Shown here piece by piece: positions 15,024 through 60,610 of a stretch of DNA of 64,000 bases (positions are counted from its first letter, which is position 1; each line of letters starts with the position of its first letter). The notes under the pieces were generated by a model, which had not been told where the DNA came from, ran no database searches, and was given only the letters and a program-made list of their open reading frames with translations. Position numbers and translations under genes: made by a program. Location of the stretch: contig JBCCHT010000050.1 of NCBI GenBank assembly GCA_039028615.1, forward strand, positions 1 to 64,000, given 5' to 3'. This stretch comes from Myxococcota bacterium (GTDB lineage: Bacteria > Myxococcota_A > Polyangia > Nannocystales > Nannocystaceae).

Positions 15024-17894
15024 ATGCGTTCGAAACCCCATGACGGCCCGGGTTCGGGCTGCCCGACCGATGCCGTGCTGGCTCGCTTCATCGAGGGCGA
15101 GCTGCACGGCACCGAGCTCGACGCGCTCGAGCAACACCTCGACGCCTGTGCGGAGTGCATCGAGCTGGTCGCCGCGCTCAATGAAGATGCGGACAGCGAC
15201 CCCGCCCTGGCGCCGACCGTGTCGAGCGACGGCGAACACGCCCCTATCGCCCCCGTCACCCTGCAGACGGGCAGCCGACTCGGCCGCTATGTGGTGCTCG
15301 ACCCGGTGGGCTCGGGCGGCATGGGCGTCGTGTACGGCGGCTACGATCCGGAGATCGATCGCAAGGTCGCCCTGAAGCTGGTGCGAGTCGCTCGCGACGA
15401 CGAGGGGCAGCACCGCAAGCGGCTGCTGCAAGAGGCGCGAGCGATGGGCCAGCTGGCGCACCCGAACATCGTCGCCGTCTACGACGTGGGCACGAGCGAC
15501 GCCGGGGTCTTCGTGGCCATGGAGTTCATCGACGGGCTCACGCTGCATGCCTGGCAGCGGACCGAGCCCCGGCGCTGGTCCGAGATCATCGAGATCTATC
15601 GCCAGACGGGGCTGGGCCTGGCCGAGGCCCATCAGCACGGCGTGGTGCACCGCGACTTCAAGCCGGGCAACGCCATGGTCGGTGACGATGGTCGGGTACG
15701 CGTGCTCGACTTCGGGCTGGCTCGGCTGGCCCCGTCGACCGAGCGGTCTCGCGAACGAGCCATCGCCACCGCCGAGTCCCGCAGCGCCGCCAGCTCGTTG
15801 CTGACCCGGGCGGGCACGATCATGGGCACGCCCGGCTATATGGCGCCCGAGCAGCGCGCGGGCGACCCCGCGGATGCCCGGAGCGACCAGTACTCGTTTT
15901 GCGTGGCTCTTCACGAGGCGCTCGTCGGCGTGCGGCCGGGCGCGGACGACCCCTCCGGCACGACCCACAAGGTCCCCGCCTTCGTACGCCAGGCGCTGAG
16001 CCGGGGACTCGCCGAAGACCCAGCCCAGCGCTGGCCAGACATGCGCAGCCTGCTGGACGCGCTCGATCCCCGACCGAGGCGACAAAAGCGGTGGCTGGCC
16101 GCCGCGGCGGTGGGCGGCTTGGCGTTGGCGTCCGCCTTTGCCTACGAACGCAGCCTCGACGGGCCCCCCGCCCCCTGTCAAAACGCGGCCGCCCAGTTCG
16201 ACGAAGTCTGGGGGCCGGAGTCCAAGGACGCGCTGAAGGCAGCCATCTCCGCCAGCAACAGCCCGATGCGCGCCGATCTCGAGCGCACCGTGCCCGCGCT
16301 GCTCGACGACTATCGCGACGACTGGATCGAGGGCCACACCACCGCCTGCGAGGCCACCCGAGTGCACGGAGAGCAGTCGGCCACGGTGCTCGACCGACGC
16401 ATGACCTGCCTGGAGCGAGTCCGTCGCGAGACCGGGAGCGCGGTCGAGCTGCTTCGCGGCGGCGACGAGGGCGTCCTTCGTCGGGCGGCGGAGATCGTGA
16501 CCGAGCTGCCCGCGTTGTCTCGGTGTGCCGATCGACAGGCCCTGCTCGCCGCCGTGCCACCGCCCGACGATCCCGACACCGCGCGACTGGTCGAAGCGCT
16601 GCACGCGGTCCTGGGCGACGTACGAGTGCAGCAACGCGCCGGTCGCTACCAGCGAGGCATCGCCCTGGCCACCGAGGCCATCGCCAAGGCCGACACGCTC
16701 GACTACGAGCCCATCGCGGCCCGCACTCGCCTCCAGGCCGGGAGCCTGCACAAGTCGGCCGGCGACGACGAGCGGGCGGCCGAGCGACTATGGGAGGCCT
16801 ACTGGATCGCGAGACGAATCGGCGACGACGAGACGATCGTCGAGGCGGAGCTCGAGCTGCTGCTCGTGCTCGGAGCGCGCCTCCAACAGACCGATGCCGC
16901 CCGTGACATCGGTCGGCACGCCCGGGCCGACATCGAGCGGATCGGCAACCGCGACGAACACTGGCACCACTACCATCGCAGCGAAGGCGCGGGGCGACTG
17001 GCCGTGGGCGACTTCGAGGCGGCCGACGAGGCATTCGAGGAGTCGCTCCGGCTCAGCCGCCAGCTCTACGGCTCCAACCCCACCACCGCGATGGATCTGA
17101 CCAACCTCGCGATGACCCGCACCAAGCTCGCGCGCGGCGAGGAGGCGGTCGAGCTGCTCACGGAAGCTCGCCAGATCTACGAGCAGTTCCTCGGCCCGCG
17201 GCACCCCTTGTTCATGGGCTTGCTCGACTCCATGGGCCAGGCCCTCCCGGGCCTGGACCGCACGACGGAAGCGATCGACCTCTTCGAGCGGGCGATCGAG
17301 ATCGGCGACGAGACCTGGGGCCCCAAGGCCGCCCGCGTGGCCCACGTGAGGATGAACCTCGGCACTGCCCTGTTCGACGTGCGGCGCTTCGACGAGGCCG
17401 AAGCTCTGTTCACCCGGGTCGCGGAGGTCTACGCCGATCACTACGGCCCGACGCACACCTACGTGGCCACGGCCGAGTACAACCTGGGTGACGCCGCCGC
17501 GGCGCGGGAGGCCTTCGAATCGGCGCTCGAGCACTACGCGCGTGCACTGACGATCTTCGAAGAACAGCTGGGCGCCGACAACCGGCACCTGTCCCCGCTG
17601 CACTTGGTGATCGCCCGCGCTCACCTGGGCATCGGTCGGCTCGACGACGCCGCACGGTCCCTCGACCGCGCCGAGGCCCGGTGCACCCACGAAGACACGC
17701 TCGAGGACACCTGCGCCGAGGTCTCGTTCACCCGTGCCCGGCTCATGGCCGAGAACCCCGAGCGCCGCCCCGACGCGGTGGCGCTGGCCCGCCGAGCCCG
17801 CGACACCCTACGGAAGCTCCGACCGCGGCACCCCGACCTCCCGGCGATGGATCGCTTCGTGGAGGCTCAGGGGGTGGCCGAGCCCAAGCCCTGA
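15024..17894 (+). CDS. Ser/Thr protein kinase with N-terminal zinc-finger, TM helix and C-terminal TPR repeats
   Basis: HLDACAEC; GSGGMG, VALK, HRDFKPGN, DFG, GTPGYMAPE; TPR repeats with LGPRHP/YGPTH. Confidence 0.92.
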   Translation: MRSKPHDGPGSGCPTDAVLARFIEGELHGTELDALEQHLDACAECIELVAALNEDADSDPALAPTVSSDGEHAPIAPVTLQTGSRLGRYVVLDPVGSGGMGVVYGGYDPEIDRKVALKLVRVARDDEGQHRKRLLQEARAMGQLAHPNIVAVYDVGTSDAGVFVAMEFIDGLTLHAWQRTEPRRWSEIIEIYRQTGLGLAEAHQHGVVHRDFKPGNAMVGDDGRVRVLDFGLARLAPSTERSRERAIATAESRSAASSLLTRAGTIMGTPGYMAPEQRAGDPADARSDQYSFCVALHEALVGVRPGADDPSGTTHKVPAFVRQALSRGLAEDPAQRWPDMRSLLDALDPRPRRQKRWLAAAAVGGLALASAFAYERSLDGPPAPCQNAAAQFDEVWGPESKDALKAAISASNSPMRADLERTVPALLDDYRDDWIEGHTTACEATRVHGEQSATVLDRRMTCLERVRRETGSAVELLRGGDEGVLRRAAEIVTELPALSRCADRQALLAAVPPPDDPDTARLVEALHAVLGDVRVQQRAGRYQRGIALATEAIAKADTLDYEPIAARTRLQAGSLHKSAGDDERAAERLWEAYWIARRIGDDETIVEAELELLLVLGARLQQTDAARDIGRHARADIERIGNRDEHWHHYHRSEGAGRLAVGDFEAADEAFEESLRLSRQLYGSNPTTAMDLTNLAMTRTKLARGEEAVELLTEARQIYEQFLGPRHPLFMGLLDSMGQALPGLDRTTEAIDLFERAIEIGDETWGPKAARVAHVRMNLGTALFDVRRFDEAEALFTRVAEVYADHYGPTHTYVATAEYNLGDAAAAREAFESALEHYARALTIFEEQLGADNRHLSPLHLVIARAHLGIGRLDDAARSLDRAEARCTHEDTLEDTCAEVSFTRARLMAENPERRPDAVALARRARDTLRKLRPRHPDLPAMDRFVEAQGVAEPKP

Positions 17895-18901
17895 GTCGCG
17901 CTGGCGGCCCGCGAGGGCGCGGTGGCCAGCACGAAGGCGTCGGCGAAGATGCGGCGCGAGGACAGGCCGGCGAGGAAGAGCCCGCGGCGCAGACGATGGA
18001 CGACCGCCGAGTCTCCGCACAGCAACACGCGATAGCGGGCCTTGGTGGCCGGGTCGGCCCGCGCAAACAGCTGTAGGGCAAACTTGTCGACCGGCGCCCG
18101 GAGGATGTTCTCGGAGTCGGTCCCGTCGCCTTCGAGCACACAGCTGTGCATGTGCAGCGTGCCGTGCTCGCGGGCCAAGGCACGCAGGTCGTCGTGCAGG
18201 TACAACCCCTGCCGATCGAGCCCGGCCTCGACGATGGTCATGGAGCCGCGGTGGTCGCTGGCCAACGCCTCGCGCACGACCCCCCATAGCGGAGCGATGC
18301 CCGTGCCCACGCCCACCATCAGCAGCGGCGCGTCGGGATCGTCGGGGGCGTAGACGCAGTCGCCATAGGGACCGCGGATGCGCACCCGCGTGCCGCGGCG
18401 AGCATCGTGGTACGCCCAGCCGCTCATCGCCCCCCCCGCCATCAGCCGAATGTGCAGCTCGAGCCAAGGCTCGCCCGGGCGGTTGGCCATGGAGTAGCTG
18501 CGAGACAGACCGTCTTCACGCTCGAGGACGAGGTACTGCCCCGCCTGGTGCTCGACCGGAGCGTCGGGCCGCAGCCGCAGTCGCACCACGGTGGCGCTCA
18601 GGCGGGTCACGTCGACGATCTCCGCCTCGGTCGAACCCGCATCGTCGGCCGGGAACGCATGGAGGTCGGTCACGGGGCGACAAAGACAGGCCAGGAACAA
18701 CCCCCGAGCCGACTCGCTGGGCAGCAAGCCCCGCTGGGCGGCGCTGGGCACCGAGTCGGGGGTTGCCTGGAGGACACACGTCTTGCAAAGGCCACGACGG
18801 CAGGTATGCGGGACGGAAGCACCGACCCGCAGGAGCCCTTCGAGCACGGTCTCGCCCCGCTGCAGCGTGACTTCCCGGCCCTGGTAGACGATCGTGGCCA
18901 T
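17867..18901 (-). CDS. 2Fe-2S ferredoxin / FAD-NAD(P)H oxidoreductase
   Basis: CRRGLCKTC...LAC 2Fe-2S motif; RSYSMA (FAD), GAMS, GPYG, GVGTGIAP, LCG. Confidence 0.9.
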   Translation of the reverse strand: MATIVYQGREVTLQRGETVLEGLLRVGASVPHTCRRGLCKTCVLQATPDSVPSAAQRGLLPSESARGLFLACLCRPVTDLHAFPADDAGSTEAEIVDVTRLSATVVRLRLRPDAPVEHQAGQYLVLEREDGLSRSYSMANRPGEPWLELHIRLMAGGAMSGWAYHDARRGTRVRIRGPYGDCVYAPDDPDAPLLMVGVGTGIAPLWGVVREALASDHRGSMTIVEAGLDRQGLYLHDDLRALAREHGTLHMHSCVLEGDGTDSENILRAPVDKFALQLFARADPATKARYRVLLCGDSAVVHRLRRGLFLAGLSSRRIFADAFVLATAPSRAASATQGLGSATP

Positions 18902-18912
18902 GGAGGTCGGGC

Positions 18913-19287
18913 CTAGCGACCGAGCACGTCGTTGCGGACGCTCTCGGCCACGGCCGCCACCTTGCCGATGAGCTCGGCTGGCACGTTGAGCGAAGCCAAC
19001 GTGTCACCCAGGTGCTTGATGACCAGGTCGACGTGCCGATCGGTGATGCCCAACCCCTGCACGCGGGCATGAGCGGTGCGCATGTCCTTGCCCGTGTATT
19101 CGTTGGGACCGCCCGTCACCATGGTGAGGAAGGCCTTCTGCTTGGCGATCTGGCCGTTCATGTCGACGTCGTCGAAGAAGTTGGCCAGCTCGGAGTCGGA
19201 CAGTACTCGGCGGTAGAAGTCCTCCACCGCCGCATCGATGGCCGGTTCTCCACCTAACTGATCGTAGATGCTCTTATCTTCACTCAT
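18913..19287 (-). CDS. Group I truncated hemoglobin (GlbN/trHbN-like)
   Basis: SIYDQLGG, FYRRVLSD, FF, GGPNEYTGKDMRTAH (proximal His). Confidence 0.93.
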   Translation of the reverse strand: MSEDKSIYDQLGGEPAIDAAVEDFYRRVLSDSELANFFDDVDMNGQIAKQKAFLTMVTGGPNEYTGKDMRTAHARVQGLGITDRHVDLVIKHLGDTLASLNVPAELIGKVAAVAESVRNDVLGR

Positions 19288-20913: not shown

Positions 20914-23439
20914 ATGACCACGTCGATGGTGGGTTGGTTGCGATGGCTGATGGTGATCGCCATGCCGTGGTTGTTGTTCGCGTGCACTTCGGGCGACGAA
21001 CGACGCATCGATCGGTGGACCCTGCACGCCGACGAGCACGGCGCCCCCGTCGAGATCGAGCTGCCGCAACACGTCGACGAGTACCTGCCCGACGCCGACA
21101 CGCGCTACCGCTTGGTGGCAGACGTCGAGCTCGGCTCGCTTGCGGGCACCGAGCTCAGCCTCGTCATCCCCCACTTCGAAGGCATCGCCGAGCTGCACGT
21201 CGACGGACGCGACGCCGTGGCGACGCACCTCGGCCCCGGCGATCGCTACCGCCACGCGGGCCCGCACGTGTGGCGCCTGCCCGCGGTTAGCGAGCAGGCC
21301 GATCACGTCACGCTCGAGCTGCTCGTCGAGCATCGCTGGTCGCAGAGCGCGTGGCTCGACACCGTGCCCCGCCTGCGCCCCGCCGACGATCTCGGGCCGG
21401 CCGCGCTGACCGTGCTCGTGCTCAACCACGTCGGGGCGATCGCAGCCGCGTGCGGCTTGGTCTTGATCGGCCTGATGTCGATGGGCCTTCACCTCGCCAA
21501 CCCCTCGCGGCGTAGCTACCTGTGGTTTTCGATCCAGATGCTGTGCGCCGCCTGGTACCCGATTCACGTCTCCGGCTACGCCCAGCTGCTGGTCGGTCGC
21601 TACGAGACGGTGCTCATGATGCTGGCCCTCGAGCTCGCCGTGTTCGCGGCGCTCGAGTACAGCGTGGCCGAGTTCGGTCGAGGCCGCCCTCATCACACGC
21701 GGTGGTGGGCGATCGGCATCGGCATCGCGGCGCTCATCACCCTGGGCTCGGCCGATCCTTACTCCGTCACCGAGGTCGGAGGTCGAGCCGCGGTCGCGGC
21801 CATCGCCGCGGTGACCACCTTCTTGATCTTCTTGGGCATCGCCGCGCTGTCCGATGAAAACCCCCCGCGGGGCTCGGTGAACTTCTTGATCGAGTGGTGC
21901 GTGCTCGGAGCGGCCATCGTCCTCGATTCGATTCCCTGGCTGGGCCTGGGAGAACCGCTCGGCGGAGCGCGAGCTGCCTGCCTGGGCCTGGGTACGTTCG
22001 CCCTGTTCAACTCGCTCCGGCTGACGCGGGAGCACATCCACTCGCTGGGTACCACCGATCGCCTCAATCGCCAGCTCGAGCGGCGCGTCACCGCCCTCGA
22101 GGCGCAGCGCAACGAGGTCGAGCGCCTGCACGAGCAGCTCCGCGACCAGCTGGGCCATCGCTCTCGTCAGCTGTTCAGCATGCTGAGCATGGTCGGGCGC
22201 GATGCCGAGCCTACGCCCGTGCTCAACCCCGGAGACTCGGTCGGCGGCAAGTACCGCGTGATGCATCAGCTCGGCAAAGGCGGCATGGGGGTCGTGTACG
22301 CGGTACTCCGCCAGGCCGACGAGCAACGCCTCGCCCTGAAGATCGCCGTGCACGCCGATGCCTGGGGCCTGGCCCGGCTCGCCCGCGAAGCCGAGATCGC
22401 GACCCGCGTCGATCATCCCAATGTGGTCACCGTCACCGACGTCGACATCGACCCTCGGGGTTTCCTTTATATGGTCATGGAACACGTCGATGGCTCGACG
22501 CTCGCCGAGTACAAACCCGGCTTCGGGCGCGACCAACGATGGGCCATGGACGTGCTGCGGCAGGTCGCGGAGGGGCTCGCGGCGCTGCACGAAGAAGGCG
22601 TGGTCCATCGCGATCTCAAGCCGGGCAACATCCTGCTGCTGATGCGGCTCGACGGCGAGCTTCAGGTCAAGATCACCGATTTCGGCATCTCCCGCACGCT
22701 CGACGCCGACATGGCCGGGCCGCTCGATCCGCAGGACTCCACCGTCCACATGCCGATTCAGCCCGCCCCCGACACGCTCGAACCGGCGGCGCGGCGGCTG
22801 CTCGATGCTCAGATTCGCGGGGAGGCAGCCGAGCAGGCCCAAGCGCACGTCGAGCAGGCCCAAACGAGCGTCGATCCGCCCACCGTTCCCGGAATCAAAC
22901 CTCCCGCCACGCCCGCCGAACTCGCCGAGGAGAACACTCGACCGCTGCGGGTCGACGAGGTTCGCAACCTCGAGCTGTGGGAACGGAGTTCACCCATCAC
23001 CGAGGCGGGCACCATCATCGGAACGCCGGTCTACATGGCTCCCGAGCTCGCCGAAGACCCGCCCATCATCAGCCCGGCCGCGGACATCTTCAGTTTTGGC
23101 GTTCTCGCCCATATGCTCCTGACTGGCGCGCGTCCGTTCTCCGAGCCCCCGGTCATGGAGGTCGCCGACGGTCGCCCGCTGCCGCCCCGCCTCGACCTCG
23201 ATCTGTCGCGAATTCCCGAGGCGCTGCATGGCATCATGCGGTCCTGTCTGAGCTTCAAGACAGACGAGCGTCCCACTGCGGCCCGGCTGGCGATGGCGTT
23301 CGCCGAGCAACGTCGGGCGCTCGGAGAGCCGCCCGCCACGATGGCGCGCAACGAGCTGGAGGCCACGGGCGAGCACACGCTCGACGTCCCCGTCCGGCGT
23401 CGACACGAGCGCTCTCCGCCCGAGCCTCACGCCGCTTAA
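20914..23439 (+). CDS. Multi-pass membrane sensor Ser/Thr protein kinase
   Basis: Extracellular N-terminal domain, about 7 TM helices, coiled coil, then GKGGMG, ALK, HRDLKPGN, DFG, GTPVYMAPE. Confidence 0.88.
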   Translation: MTTSMVGWLRWLMVIAMPWLLFACTSGDERRIDRWTLHADEHGAPVEIELPQHVDEYLPDADTRYRLVADVELGSLAGTELSLVIPHFEGIAELHVDGRDAVATHLGPGDRYRHAGPHVWRLPAVSEQADHVTLELLVEHRWSQSAWLDTVPRLRPADDLGPAALTVLVLNHVGAIAAACGLVLIGLMSMGLHLANPSRRSYLWFSIQMLCAAWYPIHVSGYAQLLVGRYETVLMMLALELAVFAALEYSVAEFGRGRPHHTRWWAIGIGIAALITLGSADPYSVTEVGGRAAVAAIAAVTTFLIFLGIAALSDENPPRGSVNFLIEWCVLGAAIVLDSIPWLGLGEPLGGARAACLGLGTFALFNSLRLTREHIHSLGTTDRLNRQLERRVTALEAQRNEVERLHEQLRDQLGHRSRQLFSMLSMVGRDAEPTPVLNPGDSVGGKYRVMHQLGKGGMGVVYAVLRQADEQRLALKIAVHADAWGLARLAREAEIATRVDHPNVVTVTDVDIDPRGFLYMVMEHVDGSTLAEYKPGFGRDQRWAMDVLRQVAEGLAALHEEGVVHRDLKPGNILLLMRLDGELQVKITDFGISRTLDADMAGPLDPQDSTVHMPIQPAPDTLEPAARRLLDAQIRGEAAEQAQAHVEQAQTSVDPPTVPGIKPPATPAELAEENTRPLRVDEVRNLELWERSSPITEAGTIIGTPVYMAPELAEDPPIISPAADIFSFGVLAHMLLTGARPFSEPPVMEVADGRPLPPRLDLDLSRIPEALHGIMRSCLSFKTDERPTAARLAMAFAEQRRALGEPPATMARNELEATGEHTLDVPVRRRHERSPPEPHAA

Positions 23440-23739
23440 AATGAGAGAGTCGCTCTCCCATCGGGGAACCGCCGAAGCGCTACGCTCCGTACGACGTTCG
23501 TTCCCACGCGAACGATGATGGCTTCATCAGCGCTCGCCAAGGTCGGCTCTCGCGATCATGTCGATGACGTTGTTCCCCACGTCGGGGTCTCATTGACGTG
23601 ACATTCAGTGCAATGGACCGGTTCAGGACCATGCCGTATATCCGGGTTTCGAGTCCGAGTTGGAGGGTGTAGCCTACCCACCCCAAACACGAGCCGCCCC
23701 CGTGTTTGACCGTTCGAGAGCGTACGAGAGTTCTTGCCC

Positions 23740-25767
23740 ATGAGTCGCACGACGATTGCCGACAGTGAACGACCGCCCCTCGATCTCGCCGCGTCGAACG
23801 ACGCGAGCGCGGAAGAGTTCGTCGTCTCCCTGGTGCTGCGTGCCGGGGGCGAAGGCTCGGGCCTGCCCACCGCCAGCGAGATGGAAGAGCGCGCCCGGCA
23901 AGGGGCCGCGCCGCTGAGCTACGACGAGTTCACCCGCCAATACGGGGCCAGCGACGACGACGTCGCCAAGGTCCGCGACTTCGCCCAGGCGCACGGGCTG
24001 AGCGTGGGCACCGTCGATCGAACCAGCGCAGTGGTGGATGTCGCCGGCTCCGTCGACCGCCTCGCCAACGCGTTCAACGTCGACCTGAAAAAACTCGTCG
24101 GGGACAACGGCGAGTTCCTTCACCACACGTCCCCCGCCTCGGTGCCCTCCGAGCTCGCGGGAATCGTGGGCTTTGCCTTCGGGCTCTCCGGCCAGCCCAC
24201 ACAGCGCGGGCGGGCCTCGCTGCACCACCGACCGACCACCGACGACGACACCACCCCGCAGGCGACCCCGAGCTACACCACGTCGCGGCTGGCCGAGATC
24301 TACGACTTCCCGCCCCTGGACGGCAGCGGGCAGGTCGCGGGCATCATCGAACTCGCGGGCGGCTACCAGCTCAGCGACATCAAGGCCTACCTCGACGAGC
24401 TGGGCCTGCCGATGCCCACCATCGTCAACGTGGGGCCCAACGAGCGCTCGCAGGATTTCGTCTCGAACCTCGAGGTCACGATGGACCTGGCCATCGTCGC
24501 CTCGCTGGCGCCCAAGTCCACGGTCGTCGTCTACAACGCCAACTCCAAGGACTACTCGTTCAGCGACTACTACGAGATCTTCCGCACCGCGGTCTTCGAC
24601 CGCGTCAACAAGCCGAAGGTCCTGTCCAATAGCTGGTCGTGGCCGGAGGTCGAGGGCATCAAGCCCAACCCGGCCGAGCGCAAGCAGTTCGAGGAGCTGT
24701 TCATCAAGGCGGCCCTGCTCGGCATCACCATCTGCTCGTCCTCGGGCGACAGCGGCTCGCTCGTCACCAACCTCAAGGGTCGCATCCTCGCGCGCACCTC
24801 GTTCCCCGTCACCAGCCCCATGATCCTCGGCTGCGGCGGCACCACCCTGCTCGCCAAGGACGACGACGTCCACGAGACGGTGTGGAACTCCATGGCCGAG
24901 ACGCTCGTCATCGAGGAGAGCGAGGGCAGCCAAGGGTCCAACGCCAACGGCATGTCGACCGGCGGCGGGGTCAGCCGCGACGTCGCGCTCCCCCGCTTTC
25001 AGTCCGAGGCCCGCGTGCCGCCCCAGGTCACCCGCAAGTGGGTCGACGGCGTGCTGACGCCTCCGGTCACCTTCGCCGGCCGCGGCGTGCCCGACGTCGC
25101 CGCCAACGCCGACCTCAACACCGGCTACAAATACATCTACGAGGGCCAAGCGGTTACGGGCGGGGGTACCAGCGCCTCGGCTCCCCTATGGACGGGGCTG
25201 TTCACCCGCATCAACCAAGGCCTCGAGCGCCCCTGCGGCTACGTCACGCCGCTGCTGTACCACTTCCAGACCGAGGTGACCGACGGGCCCTCGGTGTTCC
25301 GCCCCATCGACCGCGGCAGCAATGGCGCCTACGAGGCCCACCCCGGCGATCGCTGGAACCCATGCACTGGCCTGGGCGTGCCCATCGGCACCCGGCTCTT
25401 GGCGGCCCTTCGCGAGCACCACGACGCTCACCCCATCCTCACGAGTTCCGATCCTTCAACCGACAATCAGACGACTTCGGAGAACACCACAATGTCAGAC
25501 GGTAAGGCCAAGCAAACTTTCACGTACCTCTCGGGCCACGACTGGGGCCGCATCATGGCGCACGCGTGGCGCGACGCAGACTTCAAGGCGAAGCTCGAAG
25601 CCGATCCCACCACCACCCTGCGTGCGTACATCTCCGAGACCTGGCCCGACCGCGAGTACACCAACCTGTTCCAGATCCACGACAAGCCCGCCGACATCGC
25701 CGAGGATCAGGTCCACCAGATGGCCGACTCGGACGGGCTCGCGTACCACTGCTCCGATCTTTGCTGA
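23740..25767 (+). CDS. S53 (sedolisin/kumamolisin) serine peptidase with pro-domain, in-frame fused to an NHLP-like RiPP precursor
   Basis: Pro-kumamolisin-like N-terminus; catalytic EVTMD (Glu/Asp), SSGDSG (oxyanion Asp), GRGVPDVA, GGTSASAP (Ser), WNPCTGLG; no stop codon before the precursor segment; no evident signal peptide. Confidence 0.88.
   Translation: MSRTTIADSERPPLDLAASNDASAEEFVVSLVLRAGGEGSGLPTASEMEERARQGAAPLSYDEFTRQYGASDDDVAKVRDFAQAHGLSVGTVDRTSAVVDVAGSVDRLANAFNVDLKKLVGDNGEFLHHTSPASVPSELAGIVGFAFGLSGQPTQRGRASLHHRPTTDDDTTPQATPSYTTSRLAEIYDFPPLDGSGQVAGIIELAGGYQLSDIKAYLDELGLPMPTIVNVGPNERSQDFVSNLEVTMDLAIVASLAPKSTVVVYNANSKDYSFSDYYEIFRTAVFDRVNKPKVLSNSWSWPEVEGIKPNPAERKQFEELFIKAALLGITICSSSGDSGSLVTNLKGRILARTSFPVTSPMILGCGGTTLLAKDDDVHETVWNSMAETLVIEESEGSQGSNANGMSTGGGVSRDVALPRFQSEARVPPQVTRKWVDGVLTPPVTFAGRGVPDVAANADLNTGYKYIYEGQAVTGGGTSASAPLWTGLFTRINQGLERPCGYVTPLLYHFQTEVTDGPSVFRPIDRGSNGAYEAHPGDRWNPCTGLGVPIGTRLLAALREHHDAHPILTSSDPSTDNQTTSENTTMSDGKAKQTFTYLSGHDWGRIMAHAWRDADFKAKLEADPTTTLRAYISETWPDREYTNLFQIHDKPADIAEDQVHQMADSDGLAYHCSDLC
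25492..25767 (+). CDS. NHLP-like RiPP precursor peptide (91 aa; nested in frame, own RBS)
   Basis: GGAGA at 25479-25483, 8 nt before ATG 25492; leader motif GRIMAHAWRDADFKAKLEADP; C-terminal Cys/Ser-containing core ...DGLAYHCSDLC; directly upstream of the YcaO gene. Confidence 0.8.
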   Translation: MSDGKAKQTFTYLSGHDWGRIMAHAWRDADFKAKLEADPTTTLRAYISETWPDREYTNLFQIHDKPADIAEDQVHQMADSDGLAYHCSDLC

Positions 25768-25894
25768 ACCCGAAAGGCCCCTCGACCGACCCGATGAGTC
25801 ACCCTGACGACGCCCCCTGGAACTCGGCACCGAGAGTTCCGCGGCGCAGCGCAGCGACGACGGTCGGTCGAGACCTTCTCGCTCGGGAGGCCCC

Positions 25895-28141
25895 GTGACG
25901 GCACGCCCTCGACTCAAGCGAAACCTTCGCTGCGTCGTCGTGCCCGACGGGGTCTTCCTGCTCTCGGAGGGAGAGCCGATCCACCTGCGCGGCCGGGCCC
26001 TGCCCGCCCTGGTGCCCCTGCTCGACGGTCGACACACCGAGGACGAGATCGTCGACGCCCTCGCCGGTCGGCTGCGGCCGGCCGAGGTCTTCTACTCGCT
26101 CGAGACCCTGCGCCGCGATCGACTCGTCGTCGACGAAGACGGTGCTGCGCTGGCCGAGGGAGCGTTTTGGGATGCACGCGACGTCCCCTCCGCCTCCGCG
26201 ACGCAGCGCGTTCGCGACGGGGCAGTGGCCCTCGTTCGTGTCGGTGACGCCCCCGGGCTGGAAGCGGCCGAGCAGGCCCTCCGCCACACGCTGACCAGCA
26301 ACGACGTCGCGCTTGCCGACGATGGCTCGCTGGTCGTCGTGCTCACCGATGACTTTCTCGACGAGCGGATCGCCGAGCAGTGGCAGACGCCGCGCCAGGT
26401 CCTGCTCGTGCGCCCGCTGGGTAACGAGCCCTGGCTGGGGCCGCTGTTCGTGCCCGAGCAGACCGGGTGCTGGCACTGCCTGACGCATCGACTCCGTGCG
26501 CACCGAAGGGTCGAGGCCTACGCCGAGCGTCATCGCAGCGGCGAGGGCCCCTCGGGCACCACGCCATGGTTGCCCTCCACCCTCGCGGTCGTGGCCGGGC
26601 TCGTGGCCACCGAGATCACGCAGTGGCTGGCCTGCGGCGAGAGCCCCTTGCTCGGCCGGGTGCAGACCCTCGATCTTCGCACCTTCGCCACGCAGTCCCA
26701 TGCGGTCGTGCGGCGCCCCCAGTGTCATCACTGCGGCGACGCCGAGCTCGTCGCTACCAAGCAACGCGCGCCGCTGGTGCTCGAGTCGCGGGCCAAGATC
26801 TTCACCAGCGACGGCGGCCATCGATCGTCCACGCCCGCGCAGACCGTCGCCGCGCTCGAGCATCACGTCAGCCCGATCACCGGCCTCATTCGCCGCCTGC
26901 GGAGCAACTGCCGCGACGAGTCGGCGCGCCTGGTGACCCCCTCGTACGTCACCGATCACAACTTCGCTCACCTCGACGACGACGGGGCCTTCTTGCGCCG
27001 CAGCTCGCGGAGCCGCTCGGGCGGCAAGGGCCGCGGCGACATGCAGGCCCGCGCCAGCGCCATCTGCGAGTCGATCGAGCGCTATAGCGGCGTGTTCCAG
27101 GGCGACGAGGCCCGACGCCGCGCCACCGTGGCCGAGCTGGGCGCGGACGCGATCGAGCCCAACCGCAGCATGCTCTTCAGCGAGCGCCAGCTCGACGCCT
27201 TCGACCCCAGCGCCGCCATGCCGCCGCGCTACCGCTGGGTCCCCGCCCGCTTCGATCCCACGCAGGCCATCGACTGGACCCCGGTGTGGTCGCTGACCCA
27301 TCGGACCCATCGCTACCTCCCGACCGCCCTGTGCTTCTTCGGCTACGCCCGAGCGCACGGCATCGACTTCGCGACCGCCGACTCCAACGGCTGCGCCGCG
27401 GGCCGAAGCGTCGAGGAGGCCATCGTGCAGGGCTTCCTCGAGCTGGTCGAGCGCGATGCCGTCGCGCTGTGGTGGTACAACCGCGCCTCGCGACCCACCG
27501 TCGAGCTGGGTGATTTTGGCGAGCCCTACCTCGAGCAGGTCCGCGACTACTACGCGACCATCGATCGCGAGCTGTGGGTCTTGGACATCACCAGCGACTT
27601 GGGCATCGCCACCTTCGCCGCCGTCTCTCGCCGGGTCGGGCACGAGCGCGAGGACATCACCCTGGGCTTCGGCTGCCACCTCGATCCTCGCATCGCGATC
27701 CTGCGGGCGGTGACCGAGCTCAACCAGATCCTGCCCGCGGTCTACGACGGCTCGCAGCGCCACGACCTCGACCCGAGCTTCGACCCCAACACCCTCGGGT
27801 GGTGGAAGACGGCGACGCTCGAAAACCAGTCCTACCTGCGCCCCGCCGCCAGCGCCCCCGCCCGGCGCCGCGCCGACTACGACGACCTCAGCACCGACGA
27901 CGTGCGCTCCGACATCGCCCGTTGTGTGGGCCTAGCCGCCGAACGCGGGTTGGAAACGTTGGTCCTCGACCAGAGCCGCCCCGATACGGGCCTGGCCGTG
28001 GTCAAGGTCATCGTGCCCGGCCTGCGCCATTTCTGGTCGCGCTTCGCCGCGGGACGCCTATTCGAGGTCCCGGTTACACTGGGCTGGCAGCCCCACGTGC
28101 TCACCGAGGACCAGCTCAACCCCCACTCGATGTATTTCTGA
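25895..28141 (+). CDS. Fused TOMM cyclodehydratase (leader-binding/E1-like domain + YcaO)
   Basis: GPLFVP, CWHC and PQCHHC motifs, DGGHR, SPITG, GKG...SAICESIERYS, SNGCAAG, ELVERD, RAVTELNQ, PGLRHFW. Confidence 0.93.
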   Translation: MTARPRLKRNLRCVVVPDGVFLLSEGEPIHLRGRALPALVPLLDGRHTEDEIVDALAGRLRPAEVFYSLETLRRDRLVVDEDGAALAEGAFWDARDVPSASATQRVRDGAVALVRVGDAPGLEAAEQALRHTLTSNDVALADDGSLVVVLTDDFLDERIAEQWQTPRQVLLVRPLGNEPWLGPLFVPEQTGCWHCLTHRLRAHRRVEAYAERHRSGEGPSGTTPWLPSTLAVVAGLVATEITQWLACGESPLLGRVQTLDLRTFATQSHAVVRRPQCHHCGDAELVATKQRAPLVLESRAKIFTSDGGHRSSTPAQTVAALEHHVSPITGLIRRLRSNCRDESARLVTPSYVTDHNFAHLDDDGAFLRRSSRSRSGGKGRGDMQARASAICESIERYSGVFQGDEARRRATVAELGADAIEPNRSMLFSERQLDAFDPSAAMPPRYRWVPARFDPTQAIDWTPVWSLTHRTHRYLPTALCFFGYARAHGIDFATADSNGCAAGRSVEEAIVQGFLELVERDAVALWWYNRASRPTVELGDFGEPYLEQVRDYYATIDRELWVLDITSDLGIATFAAVSRRVGHEREDITLGFGCHLDPRIAILRAVTELNQILPAVYDGSQRHDLDPSFDPNTLGWWKTATLENQSYLRPAASAPARRRADYDDLSTDDVRSDIARCVGLAAERGLETLVLDQSRPDTGLAVVKVIVPGLRHFWSRFAAGRLFEVPVTLGWQPHVLTEDQLNPHSMYF

Positions 28142-28151
28142 AGAGGGCTTC

Positions 28152-28867
28152 ATGCAACCGCAACCCCAACGCCCGGCTCCCTCGAACCCCGCAGCAGCCA
28201 TCGCCTCGCGCGATCGCTCCGAGCAGGTCGAGTTCTTTCGCGAGCAGGGGTTCTTGAAGCTCGACCAGCTCATCGACGCCGAAGAGGTGAAGCGCCTGGC
28301 CTCCATCTACGACGACATCGTCCGGGCGCACATGGGCTTTACCCCCGCGGAGATGAAGGACAAGGTCCGGCTCGAGGAGCGCCCCTTGTTGGTGGTCTAC
28401 CCCTCGAACGACGAGATCGCCCGCCTGCGCGAGGGCAACGTCTACGAGGCCGCCACTCAGCTGGTGGCGCAGCTGGTCGGGCTCGACCCCGACCGCATCG
28501 TCGGGGGCTGGCGCCTGTTCTTCAAGCCGCCCGCCTACGGGCCCTCCAAGTGGCACCAAGACGCAGCCTATCGCCCGCCGCCCCACGAGACGGTGAGCGT
28601 GTGGCTGCCCATCGACGATGCCACGCCCGAAAACAGCTGCATGACCTACCTCGGCGGGACGCACCACACCCGCAAGATCTGGCCGCACGAGTTCGAGGAC
28701 GACCACCTCATCGCCAAGGACTTCGACCCCACGGGCGCCGTGCAGTGCCCGATCCCGGCTGGCGGCGCCACCGTTCACCACAGCTGTACGCTGCATTGTT
28801 CTGGACCGAACCAAACGCAACGACCCCGGCGCACGCTGGGCATCGTGTGCAGGATGACGAAAAGCTC

Positions 28868-28871
<4 letters not shown>
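28152..28871 (+). CDS. PhyH-family Fe(II)/2-oxoglutarate dioxygenase
   Basis: FFREQGF, WHQD (HxD), SVWLPIDDATPENSC, TLHCSGPN...RR (distal His, 2OG-binding Arg). Confidence 0.9.
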
Positions 28872-34184
<5,313 letters not shown>

Positions 34185-34207
<23 letters not shown>

Positions 34208-34931
34208 GGCGGTGGGTGGCGAGGGTCAGCCACCACGCCATCCACCCGCCGAACACGTCGAGCAGGGCGTGCAAGAGGATGGGCAGCAGCAGGGACTCGG
34301 TCACCACGAAGATCGAGCCGAAGAACACCGAGAGCACGAAGATCTTCGCCATCGCCCGCCAGCCCTGGTAGCGGTGGATGGCGGCGAAGCCGAAAGCGGG
34401 CAGCAAGACCACCGCGACGAGGCCGGCCGGGCTGCTGCCCGTGAACACCAGCAAGTACGAGATGGCAAAGCCGCGGGCGATGATCTCCTCGGTCAGGCCG
34501 GCCGAGGCCCCGAACACGCTGAAGTGACGCGCCTCGCGGAGGGTAGCGGGAAGAAAGGGCACCTCTTTCCGTAGCCGTCCCAGGGTCTCGATGCGCTTGG
34601 CGGCCGTGCACGCCCCCCGCCAGGTCTCGAAGGCGATCCACCCCACGAACGCCGCGGCGATGGCCAGCCCCGTGCCGCGCTCGGCCTGCTGCCAGGTCAG
34701 GCCGAGCGACGCGAAGGAGCGGCCGGCCGAGGCCCAGACCGCACAGGTCGCCCCGGCCGCGGCCAGCATGATGGCGCCGTTGATCCAATAGATCGCCAGC
34801 TTGGCCTTGGTGTCGAACGACTCTTCGTGGCCGAGCGACTGGCCGCGGACCAGGTTGAACAGCGCGAACGCGCCGATGAGGCCGGCCAAGACGTGCTCTG
34901 CGAGGGTCGGATCGTCCATGCTCGACGTCAT
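34185..34931 (-). CDS. CPBP (Abi/CAAX) family intramembrane metalloprotease
   Basis: EEIIARG, FAAIH and HALLD motifs; multiple TM helices; start may be 34919. Confidence 0.88.
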
Positions 34932-34958
34932 GATAAAATTATGTTAAAAATTTTACCA
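34931..34958. promoter_or_regulatory. AT-rich inverted repeat, probable operator between divergent genes
   Basis: TGATAAAATT-N8-AATTTTACCA (one mismatch) filling the 28-bp gap between the CPBP gene and the HTH regulator. Confidence 0.65.
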
Positions 34959-34959
34959 A

Positions 34960-35532
34960 TTGAAGACGCCGAAGCGACGCAAGACCTTCGTGGTCGAAGA
35001 CGATGCTCAACGGGCGGCGCTGACCTCACCGGTTCGACTCGAGCTGATCGAGCACCTGGCGGCGATCGGCCCCGCTTCCGTCCGCGATCTCGCCGCTCGG
35101 GTCGGCAGCACGACCCACGCCCTGCACTATCACGTGCGACAGCTGCGAGACGTCGGCCTTTTGGTCCCGGCGGGCTCGCGCCGCAGCGGTGCCCGCGACG
35201 AGACGCTCTACGACCTCATCGCCGAGCGTATCGAGATCTCCATGGACTCCAGCCATGGGGCCCAGGCCGGCATCAAGACCGCGCGCACCATCCTGCGCAA
35301 GGCCGAGCGCGACTTCACGGCGATCGCCGAGGCGGCCCCCGAGCGACTCGAAGCGGGCGATGGCATGGCGTGTCGAGCCCGCGCTCGTCTTTCCCGGGGC
35401 GCCCACAAGGAAGTCCTGCAGCACCTGGCCGCCATCGATCGCATCTTCCAACGCGAGCTGAAGCGTGAGCACCCGCCCCAGGCCCGCACCGAGGCCTTCA
35501 CGATGACCGTGGTGTTCGTGCCCGAGGTCTGA
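34960..35532 (+). CDS. ArsR-like winged-helix transcriptional regulator
   Basis: ALTSPVRLELIEHL...SVRDLA...LHYHVRQLRDVGLL; TTG start. Confidence 0.82.
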   Translation: MKTPKRRKTFVVEDDAQRAALTSPVRLELIEHLAAIGPASVRDLAARVGSTTHALHYHVRQLRDVGLLVPAGSRRSGARDETLYDLIAERIEISMDSSHGAQAGIKTARTILRKAERDFTAIAEAAPERLEAGDGMACRARARLSRGAHKEVLQHLAAIDRIFQRELKREHPPQARTEAFTMTVVFVPEV

Positions 35533-40324: not shown

Positions 40325-41023
40325 TCAGCGGGTGAGCACCAGCTCGCGACGACGCACCAGCAGCCCGGACAGCGTCACGCACAGCGCGACGAGTCCCACC
40401 AGCACCAGGACCGACACCCACCACGGACCTGGCCCGCTGGCGGAGACCATGGGGAACGACGAGGGCTGGCCCAGCTCGGCGAGGTTGCGCATGTGCGAGC
40501 GCAGGGTGAGCGACGAGAGCCACCCGGGCACCCCCTGGAGCGCCTGCTCCCACACCAGCACATAGGCCAGGCCGAGCCAGGTGGGGCGCTTGAGCAGCAG
40601 GCCCCACAGGCCAAAGAGGCTCGCGTGGGCCAGGGTGCCGAGCACGGCGGCCGCGATCATGCGAGCGCCGTCTTCGAAGCCGTCGGCGGCGATGATCACC
40701 GCGGGCACGATGGCGATCAGCACGGGACCGATGGCCGCGACCAACCGCGCCCCGAACAGCGCCGCACGATTGACCGGCCGGGTGAAGCCGTAGGTCAGCG
40801 TCTGGTCCTCGACCTCCTCGCGGAGCACCCCGCCGCCGAAGGCCAGCGACATCAGGGGCACGAGGAAGATCAGCATGAGCTGACCGAGCGCCCCGTGGGG
40901 CACATCGAAGAGGAAGCGCAGGATCGCGACGAGCACGGGCACCGCGATCACCCACACCAGCGTGCCCCGCCGCAGCAAGTTGCGGCGCAAGTGAAAGCCA
41001 GCCCAGAAAATCGCGGGGTTCAT
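40325..41023 (-). CDS. ABC-2 type transporter permease
   Basis: About 6 TM helices; EVEDQTLTYGFTRPVNR motif. Confidence 0.85.
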   Translation of the reverse strand: MNPAIFWAGFHLRRNLLRRGTLVWVIAVPVLVAILRFLFDVPHGALGQLMLIFLVPLMSLAFGGGVLREEVEDQTLTYGFTRPVNRAALFGARLVAAIGPVLIAIVPAVIIAADGFEDGARMIAAAVLGTLAHASLFGLWGLLLKRPTWLGLAYVLVWEQALQGVPGWLSSLTLRSHMRNLAELGQPSSFPMVSASGPGPWWVSVLVLVGLVALCVTLSGLLVRRRELVLTR

Positions 41024-41038
41024 GCTCAGGCTCGATCC

Positions 41039-41965
41039 TCAGTCGATGAGATAGCGATAGAGGCTCTCGAGGTCGGCATCGGGGGAGCCGAGCTTCTCGA
41101 TGACCATGCCGAGCCGCGCCGCCTCGGTGGGCAGCACCCGGCACAGCTCGCTCAGGTTGGTGGTGGTGAGCTCGAGGGTGGTGTCGCCGACGACCTCGGC
41201 CGCCTGCACGTGCGGCAGAGCGACCAACGCCGCCGCCAGCGGACGCGGGCCCGAGACCTCGATGCGAAAGCGATAGGGCCGATCGTCGAGCAGCGCCCGC
41301 AGGCGCGCGATGTCCCCGGTGGCGCGTAGCCGGCCGTAGCGGACCATCACCACCTGGTGGGTCATGGCCTCGACCTCGTGCAGCACGTGGCTGGAGACGA
41401 TGACGCAGCGGCCCTGCTGGCCCAGCGTGCGCACGAGCGCGATGAGGTCGGCTCGCCCGATGGGGTCGGTGCCGGTCAGCGGCTCGTCGAGCAAGACGAT
41501 GGGCGGGTCGTGGGCGATGGCCTGGGCGATCTTGGTGCGCTGCCGCATGCCCCGGCTCATCTCGCGGATGCGCTTGCCCATGTTGTCGGCCATGCCGACC
41601 TGCGCCAACGCAGCGTGGGCCCGCTGCCGAGACTCGCGCGCGGAGTACCCGAACAGGCGGGTCAGCGCGGTCACGAACGCCTCGCCCGTCTGCTCTTCGT
41701 AGAACTTGTCTTGCTCGGGGCACAGGCCGAGGCGACGGAAGATCTCGGGCTCGGCGAAGGGATCGAGCCCGCCCACGCGCACCGTGCCCGTGTCGGGCCG
41801 AAGCTGGCCGGAGATGAGCTTGAGCAAGGTGGACTTGCCCGAGCCGTTGGGGCCGAGCAGGCCGGTCACCCCCGGACCGATCTCCAGATCGATCTCGTCG
41901 AGCGCACGCACCATGCCGAAGAGCTTGGTGACGCCGCGGACCTCGATGGCGGGCGGAGCGTTCAT
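41039..41965 (-). CDS. ABC transporter ATP-binding protein
   Basis: GPNGSGKS, MSRGMRQR, LLDEP, SSH. Confidence 0.92.
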   Translation of the reverse strand: MNAPPAIEVRGVTKLFGMVRALDEIDLEIGPGVTGLLGPNGSGKSTLLKLISGQLRPDTGTVRVGGLDPFAEPEIFRRLGLCPEQDKFYEEQTGEAFVTALTRLFGYSARESRQRAHAALAQVGMADNMGKRIREMSRGMRQRTKIAQAIAHDPPIVLLDEPLTGTDPIGRADLIALVRTLGQQGRCVIVSSHVLHEVEAMTHQVVMVRYGRLRATGDIARLRALLDDRPYRFRIEVSGPRPLAAALVALPHVQAAEVVGDTTLELTTTNLSELCRVLPTEAARLGMVIEKLGSPDADLESLYRYLID

Positions 41966-42879
41966 CCCGAGACCTCCTTGCGCACCCGCCACATCAGCAA
42001 GGCGAGGCCAGCCGCGCTCAGCCCCGCGACGCACAGCATCGCCAGCGCCAACGAGGGGTTCACCGCCGGGCGATTGGTGAGCATCGACAGCAGCATGCCG
42101 CTGCCTCCCGCGTCGAGCACCGAGTCGGCCAGGGTCTGGATGTTGCGCGACGGCGACAGATAGCCCGCCCAGCGGTGCCCGGCATTGGGCAGCTGCTCGC
42201 CGAGGAAGGTCAGCATCAGCATGCCGACCACGTAGAGCACGCCCACCGTACGACCGCGCTCTCCGATCGCGCTGAGACCCAAGATGGTGGTGGTGAGCAG
42301 GACGGCGGCGACCAAGACCCCGAGCAGCCCCGGCGGCAGCAGCCACCACAGCTCGGAGGACGTGCCCGGCGGGGCCATGCCCACCGCGAACAGCCACAGC
42401 AAGAAGAACGGCACCACCATCACCGCGAAGGGCACCAGGCCCGCGGCCAGCAGCTTGCCGATGAGGTAGTCGCGCTGGCGGAGCGGCCGGGAGAAGTACA
42501 GCTCCATGGCCCCGGTGCGACGATCTTCGGCCACGAGCGGCGCGGCCACCATCGCCAGCAAGAACGCGCAGGCGACCATCTGCACGCCGATGAAGTTGGC
42601 CAGGGTCGCGTGCACGTCCCCCACCACCCCCTTGATGAAGGTCTGCGCCATGCCGACCGGGGCACCGTGGGTGGCCTGGGTGAAGCGCTCGGCGAGGATC
42701 TGGGCGGTCAGGGCCATGCCGTGGCCGAACACCGACATCGAACACAGGACCAGGCCGAACTTGGTGGAGCGCTTGCGCCACGCGAGGCTGAGCGCGGTGC
42801 GGGCGATGGGCCACGGCACCCAGCGGTGGGATCGCTCGGGCAGACGGCGGTAGCCGACCCCGAAGACCTGATCCTTCAT
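41962..42879 (-). CDS. ABC-2 type transporter permease
   Basis: EDRRTGAMELYFSRPLRQRDYLIGKL; multiple TM helices; 4-nt overlaps with neighbours. Confidence 0.85.
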   Translation of the reverse strand: MKDQVFGVGYRRLPERSHRWVPWPIARTALSLAWRKRSTKFGLVLCSMSVFGHGMALTAQILAERFTQATHGAPVGMAQTFIKGVVGDVHATLANFIGVQMVACAFLLAMVAAPLVAEDRRTGAMELYFSRPLRQRDYLIGKLLAAGLVPFAVMVVPFFLLWLFAVGMAPPGTSSELWWLLPPGLLGVLVAAVLLTTTILGLSAIGERGRTVGVLYVVGMLMLTFLGEQLPNAGHRWAGYLSPSRNIQTLADSVLDAGGSGMLLSMLTNRPAVNPSLALAMLCVAGLSAAGLALLMWRVRKEVSG

Positions 42880-43802
42880 TGCACCTCCTGGGGGCCGACC
42901 GCGGCCATGAACGCGTCTTCGAGTCGTTGACCGCGGGGCTGCACTTGCCACAGCGACACGCCCACCGCCGCCGCCGCGGCCCAGATGGCCTCGGGGCCAT
43001 GGCCGGGAGCGAGGCGCACCCGCAGCGCGTCGGGCTGGGCTCCCGGGCTCACGCCGTGCCCGGCCTGGGTGAGTGTGCCCGCCAGCGGCCGCAGATCGTC
43101 CGAGCCGCGGATCTCGTAGTCGTCGTCGCCCATGCGCGCGCGCAGCTGCTCGAGCGTGCCCGCGTAGCGCACCTGGCCGCGGTCCATGATGATGCAGGCG
43201 TCGCAGGTGCGCTCCACGTCGTGGAGCAGGTGGGTCGACAGCAGCACGGCCGGACCATCGCCATCGCGCAAGCGCACGATGAGCTGCAAGAGTTCGTCGC
43301 GGCTGCTGGGGTCGAGGCCGCTGGTGGGCTCGTCGAGCATGAGCAGCTCGGGGTCGTGGACCAGGGCCATGGCGATCTTGACCCGCTGGTGCATGCCCGT
43401 GCTGTACTCCTCGACCGGCCGCTGGCGTGCGTCGTCGAGGCCGACCAGGTCGAGCATCTCGTGGGCGCGCAAGAGTGCGATGCGCCGCGGCAGCCCGCAC
43501 AGCTCCGCCGCGTAGGCCACCGATTCCAGCCCGGACAGCCCGGGAATGCGATGCGCCCCCTCGGCCGCGTAGCCCAGGCGCATGCGCACCGCTCCGGGGT
43601 TGCGACGTGCATCGACCCCGAGCACGCCCACCTCCCCCGCGTCGGGTTTCAGCAGGCCCAGGCACGCGCGCATCAGCGTGGTCTTGCCCGCACCGTTGGG
43701 CCCGAGCAGGCCGACCGCGCGACCGTCGACGCGACAGGTCACCTCGTCGAGCGCCTTCAGGGCGCCGAATCGCTTGCTCACGCCGCGGAGGTCAAGCAGC
43801 AC
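42876..43802 (-). CDS. ABC transporter ATP-binding protein
   Basis: GPNGAGKT, YSTGMHQR, LDEPTSGLD, STH; GTG start at 43802. Confidence 0.92.
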   Translation of the reverse strand: MLLDLRGVSKRFGALKALDEVTCRVDGRAVGLLGPNGAGKTTLMRACLGLLKPDAGEVGVLGVDARRNPGAVRMRLGYAAEGAHRIPGLSGLESVAYAAELCGLPRRIALLRAHEMLDLVGLDDARQRPVEEYSTGMHQRVKIAMALVHDPELLMLDEPTSGLDPSSRDELLQLIVRLRDGDGPAVLLSTHLLHDVERTCDACIIMDRGQVRYAGTLEQLRARMGDDDYEIRGSDDLRPLAGTLTQAGHGVSPGAQPDALRVRLAPGHGPEAIWAAAAAVGVSLWQVQPRGQRLEDAFMAAVGPQEVQ

Positions 43803-43950
43803 AGGCGCTTTGTACCGCACCCCCGCCGCCCTTCTTCCCGATTTCTCGACCAATCGCGATCCGGCGACGATGAACGGTCGGAGGCTCGACCCGAAGGGCC
43901 CCGCGGACCCGACCGCGCGAAACCGGCACGGACACGCTATCGTCGGGCCC

Positions 43951-60453: not shown

Positions 60454-60469
60454 GCCCGAACGACGCCAA

Positions 60470-60485
60470 CCTACAAAATTGTAGG
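60470..60485. promoter_or_regulatory. Perfect palindrome, candidate enhancer (bEBP) site
   Basis: CCTACAA-AA-TTGTAGG, about 95 bp upstream of the sigma-54 motif. Confidence 0.6.
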
Positions 60486-60579
60486 AAGCGCGCCCGAGGC
60501 GAACACAAACGTCGTTTCAAAGCGTGTGAGGCTTCATAATTTCTCGTCTTCCCCGGCACTTGGGCACCCACTCGGCGGG

Positions 60580-60595: not shown

Positions 60596-60610
60596 TTGAA
60601 GCCCCCCACC

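Follow-up and report, generated by a model that had tools for sequence, protein, structure and literature searches.

Organization of the Locus

The stretch of DNA analysed here (the window, 64,000 nt) is part of contig C50 of a 12.3-Mb genome that is 96.7% complete, with a local G+C content of about 67%. Its forward strand carries a 675-aa open reading frame in which an S53 protease is fused to a peptide precursor (gene 1, 23740..25767), followed by an E1-YcaO gene (25895..28141, 748 aa, GTG start), a PhyH dioxygenase gene (28152..28871, 239 aa) and a kinase gene (28868..34207, 1779 aa). The order of encoded domains is pro-kumamolisin and peptidase; E1 and YcaO; PhyH; and kinase-AAA-GAF-HisKA-HATPase, and catalytic motifs are present in all four proteins. 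The YcaO and dioxygenase genes are separated by 10 bp (28142-28151), the dioxygenase and kinase genes overlap in an ATGA sequence (28868-28871), and the gene 1 product ends in YHCSDLC directly before the stop codon. Hydropathy analysis showed no signal peptide or clear membrane segment in any of the four proteins (maximum of 0.89 within the first 60 residues of the gene 1 product). Neither a dehydrogenase nor a transporter is encoded within the four genes, and no SagB-type match in the genome reached the TIGR03605 cut-off, two matches lying below it. A preliminary description of this DNA had reported the four co-oriented genes with their gap and overlap, their domain identities, HCSDLC at the extreme C-terminus and an operon devoid of azoline dehydrogenase and exporter; all of these are present as described, the domain identities being in agreement with profile searches.

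The 127-bp gap between gene 1 and the YcaO gene contains a strong stem-loop on the forward strand, just after the precursor stop codon (25771..25882; −59.6 kcal/mol, z −2.86, equalled by 1 of 200 shuffled sequences), with perfect 11-nt arms, which possibly serves mRNA stabilisation or attenuation. No sigma-70-type promoter was found.

A CAAX-type (Rce1-like) intramembrane protease gene on the reverse strand (34185-34931) overlaps the 3′ end of the kinase gene by 23 bp and is divergent from an ArsR-type regulator gene (region 34185-35532). It was rejected as a cluster member, since it pairs with its own ArsR-type gene and no relative was found by tblastn in the fetched loci; an upstream membrane kinase, also lacking a tblastn match in any fetched locus, was likewise rejected. 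Elsewhere in the window there are reverse-strand ABC ATPase-like and permease-like genes about 6 kb downstream of the operon (40325-44060, identified by eye from the translations), a truncated globin with a ferredoxin-reductase-type partner (17867-19287), and molybdopterin oxidoreductase and nitrite reductase genes (58075-63532).

Gene 1 Encodes a Protease Fused to a Precursor

The first part of the gene 1 product (residues 1 to about 562) is pro-kumamolisin-like. A kumamolisin-type pro-domain (23740..24249, about residues 1-170; PF09286, E 1.4e-12), which aligns to pro-kumamolisin 1t1e, precedes an S53 catalytic domain (24250..25425) with the residues E245, D249 and S478 and the oxyanion residue D337. 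The kumamolisin alignment (E 1.6e-77) covers residues 51-558. The pro-domain, the Glu-Asp-Ser triad and the oxyanion Asp characteristic of the S53 sedolisin/kumamolisin family are thus all present, and the closest named relatives of the protease are myxobacterial.

The catalytic domain is followed by a linker of about 22 codons (25426..25491) with a GC3 of 0.70, as compared with 0.95 in the catalytic domain, and by the precursor (25492..25767, 91 aa). An internal ribosome-binding site, GGAGA, stands 8 nt before the ATG of the precursor (25479..25494); a motif of this type precedes just two of the 62 other in-frame ATGs of the four genes. In most of the free S53 relatives inspected 17-26 residues separate the last GLG from the C-terminus, as against 132 in the fusions. 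From these features gene 1 is read as two genes in one frame, with residues 585-675 as the precursor, and the linker is likely to be former intergenic DNA.

The same fusion, with a linker of equal length, was found in a second protein (P0002) that is 75% identical overall. The two proteins share 79% identity in the catalytic domain, 41% (7/17) in the first 17 linker residues (559-575), 90% (9/10) in residues 576-585, which end at the internal Met, 83% in the leader and 6/6 in the core. An assembly or frame error at the fusion could be ruled out, P0002 having retained it and a second assembly of the window region (a Logan contig from the probable source run, a marine metagenome, and hence not an independent sample) spanning 23400-29400 with zero differences. 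Among the best 120 of 742 S53 matches only the window protein and P0002 bear the tail, and of 56 matches in a representative library the only one longer than 300 aa was the window's own protein. The comparison suggests that the protease most likely became joined to the precursor when its stop codon was lost, and that the fusion is lineage-specific and tolerated rather than required; it may be an accident of the common ancestor of the two lineages. We infer that the precursor's own internal start remains in use, and consider it quite probable that the tail is produced in two forms, one initiated separately at the internal ATG and the other attached to the protease.

In a full-length model the tail forms a domain of its own (pLDDT about 70-92 over residues 590-660). 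Residues 498-582 are not modelled reliably, probably owing to a mixture of protease and precursor rows in the alignment.

The Precursor Family and the HCSDLC Core

The C-terminal sequence of the tail, ...DSDGLAYHCSDLC, contains no double-glycine motif and has a short suffix ending in Cys. Residues 20-52 of the tail carry the nitrile-hydratase-like (NHase-like) motif 1 (AW.D..F...L..D). The 91 residues are divided into a leader, predicted to be folded, and a short predicted core, HCSDLC (25747..25764), whose cleavage site is inferred. The tail matched TIGR03795 with 22.5 bits (E 1e-4, motif 1 only; cut-off of 41 not reached) and TIGR03793 with 17.1 bits (cut-off of 50.9 not reached). In the aligned family, 44 of 47 members match TIGR03793 and 39 match TIGR03795 (E ≤ 0.1), 32 end in Cys, and seven have a GG within the last 30 residues. 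The precursor is single-copy in the genome, with no tandem or fused pair.

Three free-standing relatives of 89-112 aa (P0003, P0004 and P0005) start at the matching place and end in HCSDLC, HCSDLC and HCSNLC, respectively, so that the core is invariant in the window protein, P0002, P0003 and P0004. At one locus (L106) a free HCSDLC precursor, with a profile score of 63.7 bits versus at most 7.9 for 200 shuffled sequences, is encoded directly before an E1-YcaO gene. A gene for an S53 pro-domain lies divergently upstream of it, as an 82-residue fragment too short to be placed in a clade. The P0004 precursor and the S53 protein P0082 come from the same source with matching assembly statistics, an indirect sign that they lie together.

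The model of the tail alone (pLDDT 89.8) consists of three helices, short strands, a fourth helix and a loose core. Structure searches with it gave weak matches (Z 3.5 to 6lk7, Z 2.7 to 8tb1), and Foldseek returned no match at E ≤ 0.001; the family profile matched the NHLP structure 8tb1 with E 1.9e-7. As far as the accessible text goes, the NHLP leader elements described in PMC12537861 resemble the helix/strand pattern of the model. The tail is classified as a RiPP-type precursor, probably of the NHLP clan. That it is a RiPP precursor had been proposed in the preliminary description, and the free-standing relatives with the same core, one of them directly before an E1-YcaO gene, uphold this. 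Another precursor fusion was noticed in P0033 (288 aa), in which an N-terminal domain is joined to an NHLP-like tail ending in PPACC.

The Cyclodehydratase, the Dioxygenase and the Dual Kinase

The product of 25895..28141 contains E1 (TIGR03882, 156 bits; cut-off 36.9) and YcaO (TIGR03604, 262 bits; cut-off 219) regions fused in one chain with conserved ATP-binding motifs, and matches LynD over residues 14-748 (E 6.5e-186). It is assigned by homology as a fused cyclodehydratase of the LynD/TruD/MusD type. A predicted complex of tail and YcaO scored 0.33, the best of three controls scoring 0.00; the runs agreed in at least 82% of contacts, with a partner pLDDT of at least 73. The mark used for this score was reached by 116 of 157 solved complexes and by 2 of 215 mismatched pairs, and values at or below 0.60 account for only 18 of the 157 solved complexes but for both mismatches. 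The prediction thus weakly supports a complex, and its score may echo solved LynD-leader complexes. The genome of the window has three other YcaO matches, all of them distant (27-28% identity; G000:C17 16414-19419 and C63 10456-11436). In another genome a cluster (L101 6371-11124, G005) encodes a precursor ending in IHLVSCC with a Lys/Ala-rich N-terminus, E1-YcaO, a 219-aa protein with no Pfam match and an oxidoreductase-like protein, with a dual kinase about 13 kb downstream.

The product of 28152..28871 matches PF05721 (E 1.8e-26) and has HQD at 135-137 (H135-x-D137) and a distal His in HHSCTLH at 209-215, which gives the H-x-D...H iron triad. In halogenases the motif takes the form H-x-A/G, unlike H-x-D. 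The protein is accordingly assigned, from its motifs, as a PhyH-family Fe(II)/2-oxoglutarate dioxygenase. PhyH was absent from 80 of 80 YcaO loci (the best 80 of 578 confirmed, from a scan covering 36 of 64 parts) and from 42 of 42 S53 loci. In 72 genomes of the family the best PhyH match (32% identity, 80 bits; next match 70) is encoded directly before an E1-YcaO gene in a genome of the same genus, in a cluster that also has SagB, and the dioxygenase-YcaO link would rest on this one other locus. A YcaO cluster of a different kind in the same genus (L102 3256-10765, G001) comprises a 920-aa open reading frame and genes for PhyH, E1-YcaO, SagB and a protein of 336 aa whose C-terminus consists of five Cys and Leu.

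The kinase is soluble and combines a Ser/Thr kinase, an AAA ATPase, a helical region, GAF and a histidine kinase, with catalytic motifs present; its TIGR03903 score is 163 (cut-off 706). At E ≤ 1e-60 the genome has one dual-kinase copy, the one adjoining YcaO, and in the genome G892 the sole copy is also next to YcaO. A strong dual-kinase match was found in 16 of the 80 YcaO loci, many of which are truncated, and in 15 of the 25 loci classed as cyanobacterial (one, L045, by gene content). Kinase-AAA proteins are recurrent neighbours of these YcaO genes in several phyla, at a frequency far exceeding the rough 2% expected from copy number (20 copies × 8 kb / 9 Mb). The dual-kinase family is common (44 of 72 family genomes, and 16-30 copies in three cyanobacteria), and the YcaO-linked copies rank in the middle of the list among paralogs and are not the best match to the window kinase. 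A dedicated kinase subfamily is therefore not supported, and repeated recruitment is indicated instead. The cyanobacterial loci (L021-L055) show a recurring set of E1-YcaO, an amidohydrolase-like protein, proteins of 150-390 aa with YIP..T-like ends and the dual kinase; four of the proteins with these ends matched no NCBIfam model.

An S53 Clade Linked to E1-YcaO Clusters

S53 family searches centred on Cystobacter and Polyangium genomes covered 201 genomes each, of which 36 and 6, respectively, gave matches at E ≤ 1e-60; a phylum-wide search, too broad to be informative, gave matches in 3 of 401. The 42 S53 loci comprise 35 of 36 and 6 of 7 matches (two on very short stretches were left out) and the paralog of this genome. 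In a quick tree of 65 rows, which flags long branches, the window protein groups with 36 loci of known context on a branch with SH-aLRT 100, apart from six others. E1/YcaO was encoded in the fetched 10-20 kb at 33 of the 36 clade loci (one counted from an E1 fragment at a contig end) and at none of the six outside. The three clade loci with no YcaO in the fetched DNA are L105, L239 and L252; L252 is truncated by a contig end, yet encodes a precursor. Some 20 of the 33 linked loci are closely related and share one gene order; among groups the S53/YcaO arrangement differs, being divergent, downstream of SagB, convergent or fused. In the cultured myxobacterium Polyangium fumosum (L042) S53 and precursor form an unfused pair. 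At L229, which also has a partial TIGR03903 match, a true TIGR03795 precursor (71 bits; cut-off 41) is present, and this ties the S53 clade to the NHLP-Burk system.

The contrast between 33 of 36 loci inside the clade and 0 of 6 outside points to a likely leader-removing protease, and by its clade membership the S53 enzyme of the window likely removes leaders of precursors with no double-glycine site. The view of the preliminary description that the S53 protease is part of the YcaO system is thereby strengthened. It had also suggested a search for co-occurrence of S53, YcaO and PhyH: the pairing of S53 with E1/YcaO was recovered, PhyH did not recur in the YcaO or S53 loci, and the full set of S53-precursor, E1-YcaO, PhyH and dual kinase was found in no other genome searched. 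S53 lies within 8 kb at only one of the 80 best YcaO loci, so that most such clusters do without a nearby S53. An amidohydrolase-like protein, which could remove the leader instead, is also encoded in most S53-linked loci; a SagB or amidohydrolase acting from elsewhere in this 96.7% complete genome was not found with the queries used. The cores vary widely between S53-linked clusters.

Further features were seen at S53 loci. The genome of the window has a second S53 gene of the same clade (L105 8161-9933, G000:C47). Its product is 41% identical and lacks the tail, no YcaO gene lies within 18 kb, and the protein could act in trans or be an orphan. A LanM gene (TIGR03897 above cut-off) lies in an S53-linked YcaO cluster with a precursor ending in CANSSTA (L247 9287-12064), a possible hybrid azole/lanthipeptide cluster, and a B12-binding radical SAM-like gene was found in S53-linked TIGR03795 clusters (L229 13222-15174, precursor ending in HCCGSPCC).

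Proposed Pathway and Alternative Explanations

What is observed directly is the gene content, the intact motifs, the fusion, the start signal of the tail, the free precursors with the same core and the linkage of S53 with YcaO. The reading that we favour on balance is an NHLP-Burk-like azoline peptide cassette with an S53 protease fused in frame to the precursor, in which E1-YcaO would form thiazolines and S53 would cut the core off. The leader would bind to the E1 part of the cyclodehydratase, which would close Cys671 and the terminal Cys675 (perhaps also Ser672) to azolines; the dioxygenase would then oxidise the core, S53 would free about five or six residues from the leader, and the product would stay in the cell as a signal for the soluble dual kinase. 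These chemical steps are drawn from knowledge of the families. That the tail is the substrate of YcaO is very probable, and leader removal by S53 fairly probable. Oxidation of the core by the dioxygenase is favoured with moderate confidence; the enzyme would either stand in for the absent flavin dehydrogenase and turn the terminal thiazoline into a thiazole, or hydroxylate Asp or His. Retention of the product in the cell, coupled to the dual kinase, is given slightly better than even chances. An intracellular signal is preferred as the purpose because no exporter is present and the soluble kinase is co-translated. S53 enzymes are typically acid-active, which fits a neutral cytoplasm poorly; this preference is the main difficulty, and could as well be a gate.

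The fusion could instead have been selected, as a self-releasing precursor whose tail is modified by YcaO and the dioxygenase and then cut in cis by the attached S53 after removal of the pro-domain, for example on acidification. In its fullest form, a pH-gated sedolisin would carry a precursor that is ring-closed, oxidised, cut in cis and read as a signal by a Ser/Thr-His dual kinase; the S53 clade would then represent a new class among the RiPP leader proteases, and the fusion would be the first protease-borne precursor. Retention of the reading frame and linker length in two proteins only 75% identical, and the folding of the tail as its own domain in the full-length model, speak for selection. 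However, the tail occurs on just 2 of 120 S53 relatives (the best 120 of 742), and the internal start signal is kept, its codons being better conserved than the enzyme, which would be expected of a precursor that works in its free form; moreover, some 22 GC-rich codons can presumably stay open by chance. Both forms are considered unlikely.

Two other explanations keep the cassette and change its purpose. The core might never be released, the ring-modified folded leader being a protein switch acting on the dual kinase and S53 resetting or destroying it. The absence of a double-glycine site and an exporter, the very short core (with the Cys end in 32 of 47 family members) and the adjoining soluble kinase would suit such a switch, as would the 25 cyanobacterial loci, none of which has an S53 and 15 of which retain the kinase; but a protease clade tied to these clusters best fits leader removal, and the cores of the S53-linked clusters vary like those of natural products, which makes a switch improbable. 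An outward-acting metabolite, antimicrobial or metal-binding, which leaves through a transporter encoded elsewhere or by lysis, with the kinase as regulator of the operon or as passenger and PhyH maybe also a passenger, ranks last and is judged quite improbable. His and two Cys in the core suit metal binding, ABC-type transporter genes are encoded on the opposite strand about 6 kb downstream, dual kinases are abundant and PhyH is not a regular member of related clusters; against these stand the tight junctions of the YcaO, PhyH and kinase genes (10-bp gap, 4-bp overlap) and the kinase-AAA neighbours of these YcaO genes in several phyla, at a frequency far exceeding the rough 2%.

The fusion draws attention to one particular protease clade as a candidate for the leader-removal step that is missing in myxobacteria, and the clade makes this long-open step testable. 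Three enzymes and a six-residue core constitute a small and direct test of leader removal, and the locus also allows the role of a dioxygenase where the flavin dehydrogenase is missing, and a peptide input to the adjoining giant kinases, to be tested.

Comparison with Known Systems

The preliminary description had called the operon apparently undescribed, a view that is weakened by earlier work. In the accessible text of Haft et al. (2010; PMC2887384) NHLP-Burk comprises terminal-Cys precursors without motif 2, a fused cyclodehydratase and a large Ser/Thr kinase, with no transporter, so that the layout without exporter has been described and the system is not wholly new. With that system (TIGR03795/TIGR03882/TIGR03604/TIGR03903), as there presented, the window shares the NHase-like motif 1, the lack of a double-glycine site, the Cys-ended suffix, the fused cyclodehydratase, the large Ser/Thr kinase and the lack of a transporter. 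It differs in having a single 91-aa precursor, below the model cut-off and fused to S53, instead of a tandem pair, in the presence of PhyH and absence of SagB, and in a histidine kinase as the kinase output, unlike the TIGR03903 kinase/cyclase. From its sequence the locus would work like NHLP-Burk, but it is no member by score or pairing.

The accessible text of a 2023 review of RiPP leader proteases (PMC10885120) contains no occurrence of S53, sedolisin or kumamolisin, and that of PMC13174530 presents, within a different architecture, a predicted S8/S53 domain whose presumed role is the removal of a follower peptide. Within the accessible open-access literature no paper was found that deals with a fusion of S53 to a precursor, with S53 in azoline clusters, or with the product, leader removal or purpose of NHLP-Burk-type systems; the S53 link and the protease-precursor fusion are therefore the parts with no paper found there.

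With the NHLP/proteusin group (TIGR03793; 8tb1), as far as PMC12537861 is accessible, the tail shares the predicted leader elements, three helices and short strands, and the profile match to 8tb1, whereas it lacks the ELSDEQL..GG cleavage motif, has a core of about six residues and is accompanied by no peptidase-ABC transporter in the operon. The cyclodehydratase is homologous over its full length to the cyanobactin heterocyclases LynD, TruD and MusD, but the locus has an S53-type protease and an NHLP-like precursor in place of PatA/PatG-type S8 proteases and a PatE-type precursor. According to the accessible part of Cox et al. (2015; PMC4603692), PatA/G-like proteases are absent from NHLP and Nif11 clusters. 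The pro-domain, Glu-Asp-Ser triad and oxyanion Asp are shared with kumamolisin, from which gene 1 differs by the lack of a signal peptide, the C-terminal precursor domain and its place in a YcaO-linked myxobacterial clade. Borosins and plant BURP cyclases, as presented in the accessible sources, likewise unite a maturation enzyme and its peptide substrate in a single chain. In those systems the modification is installed by the fused enzyme, whereas the enzyme fused here is a protease presumed to release the peptide, and the tail retains a complete leader and a start of its own.
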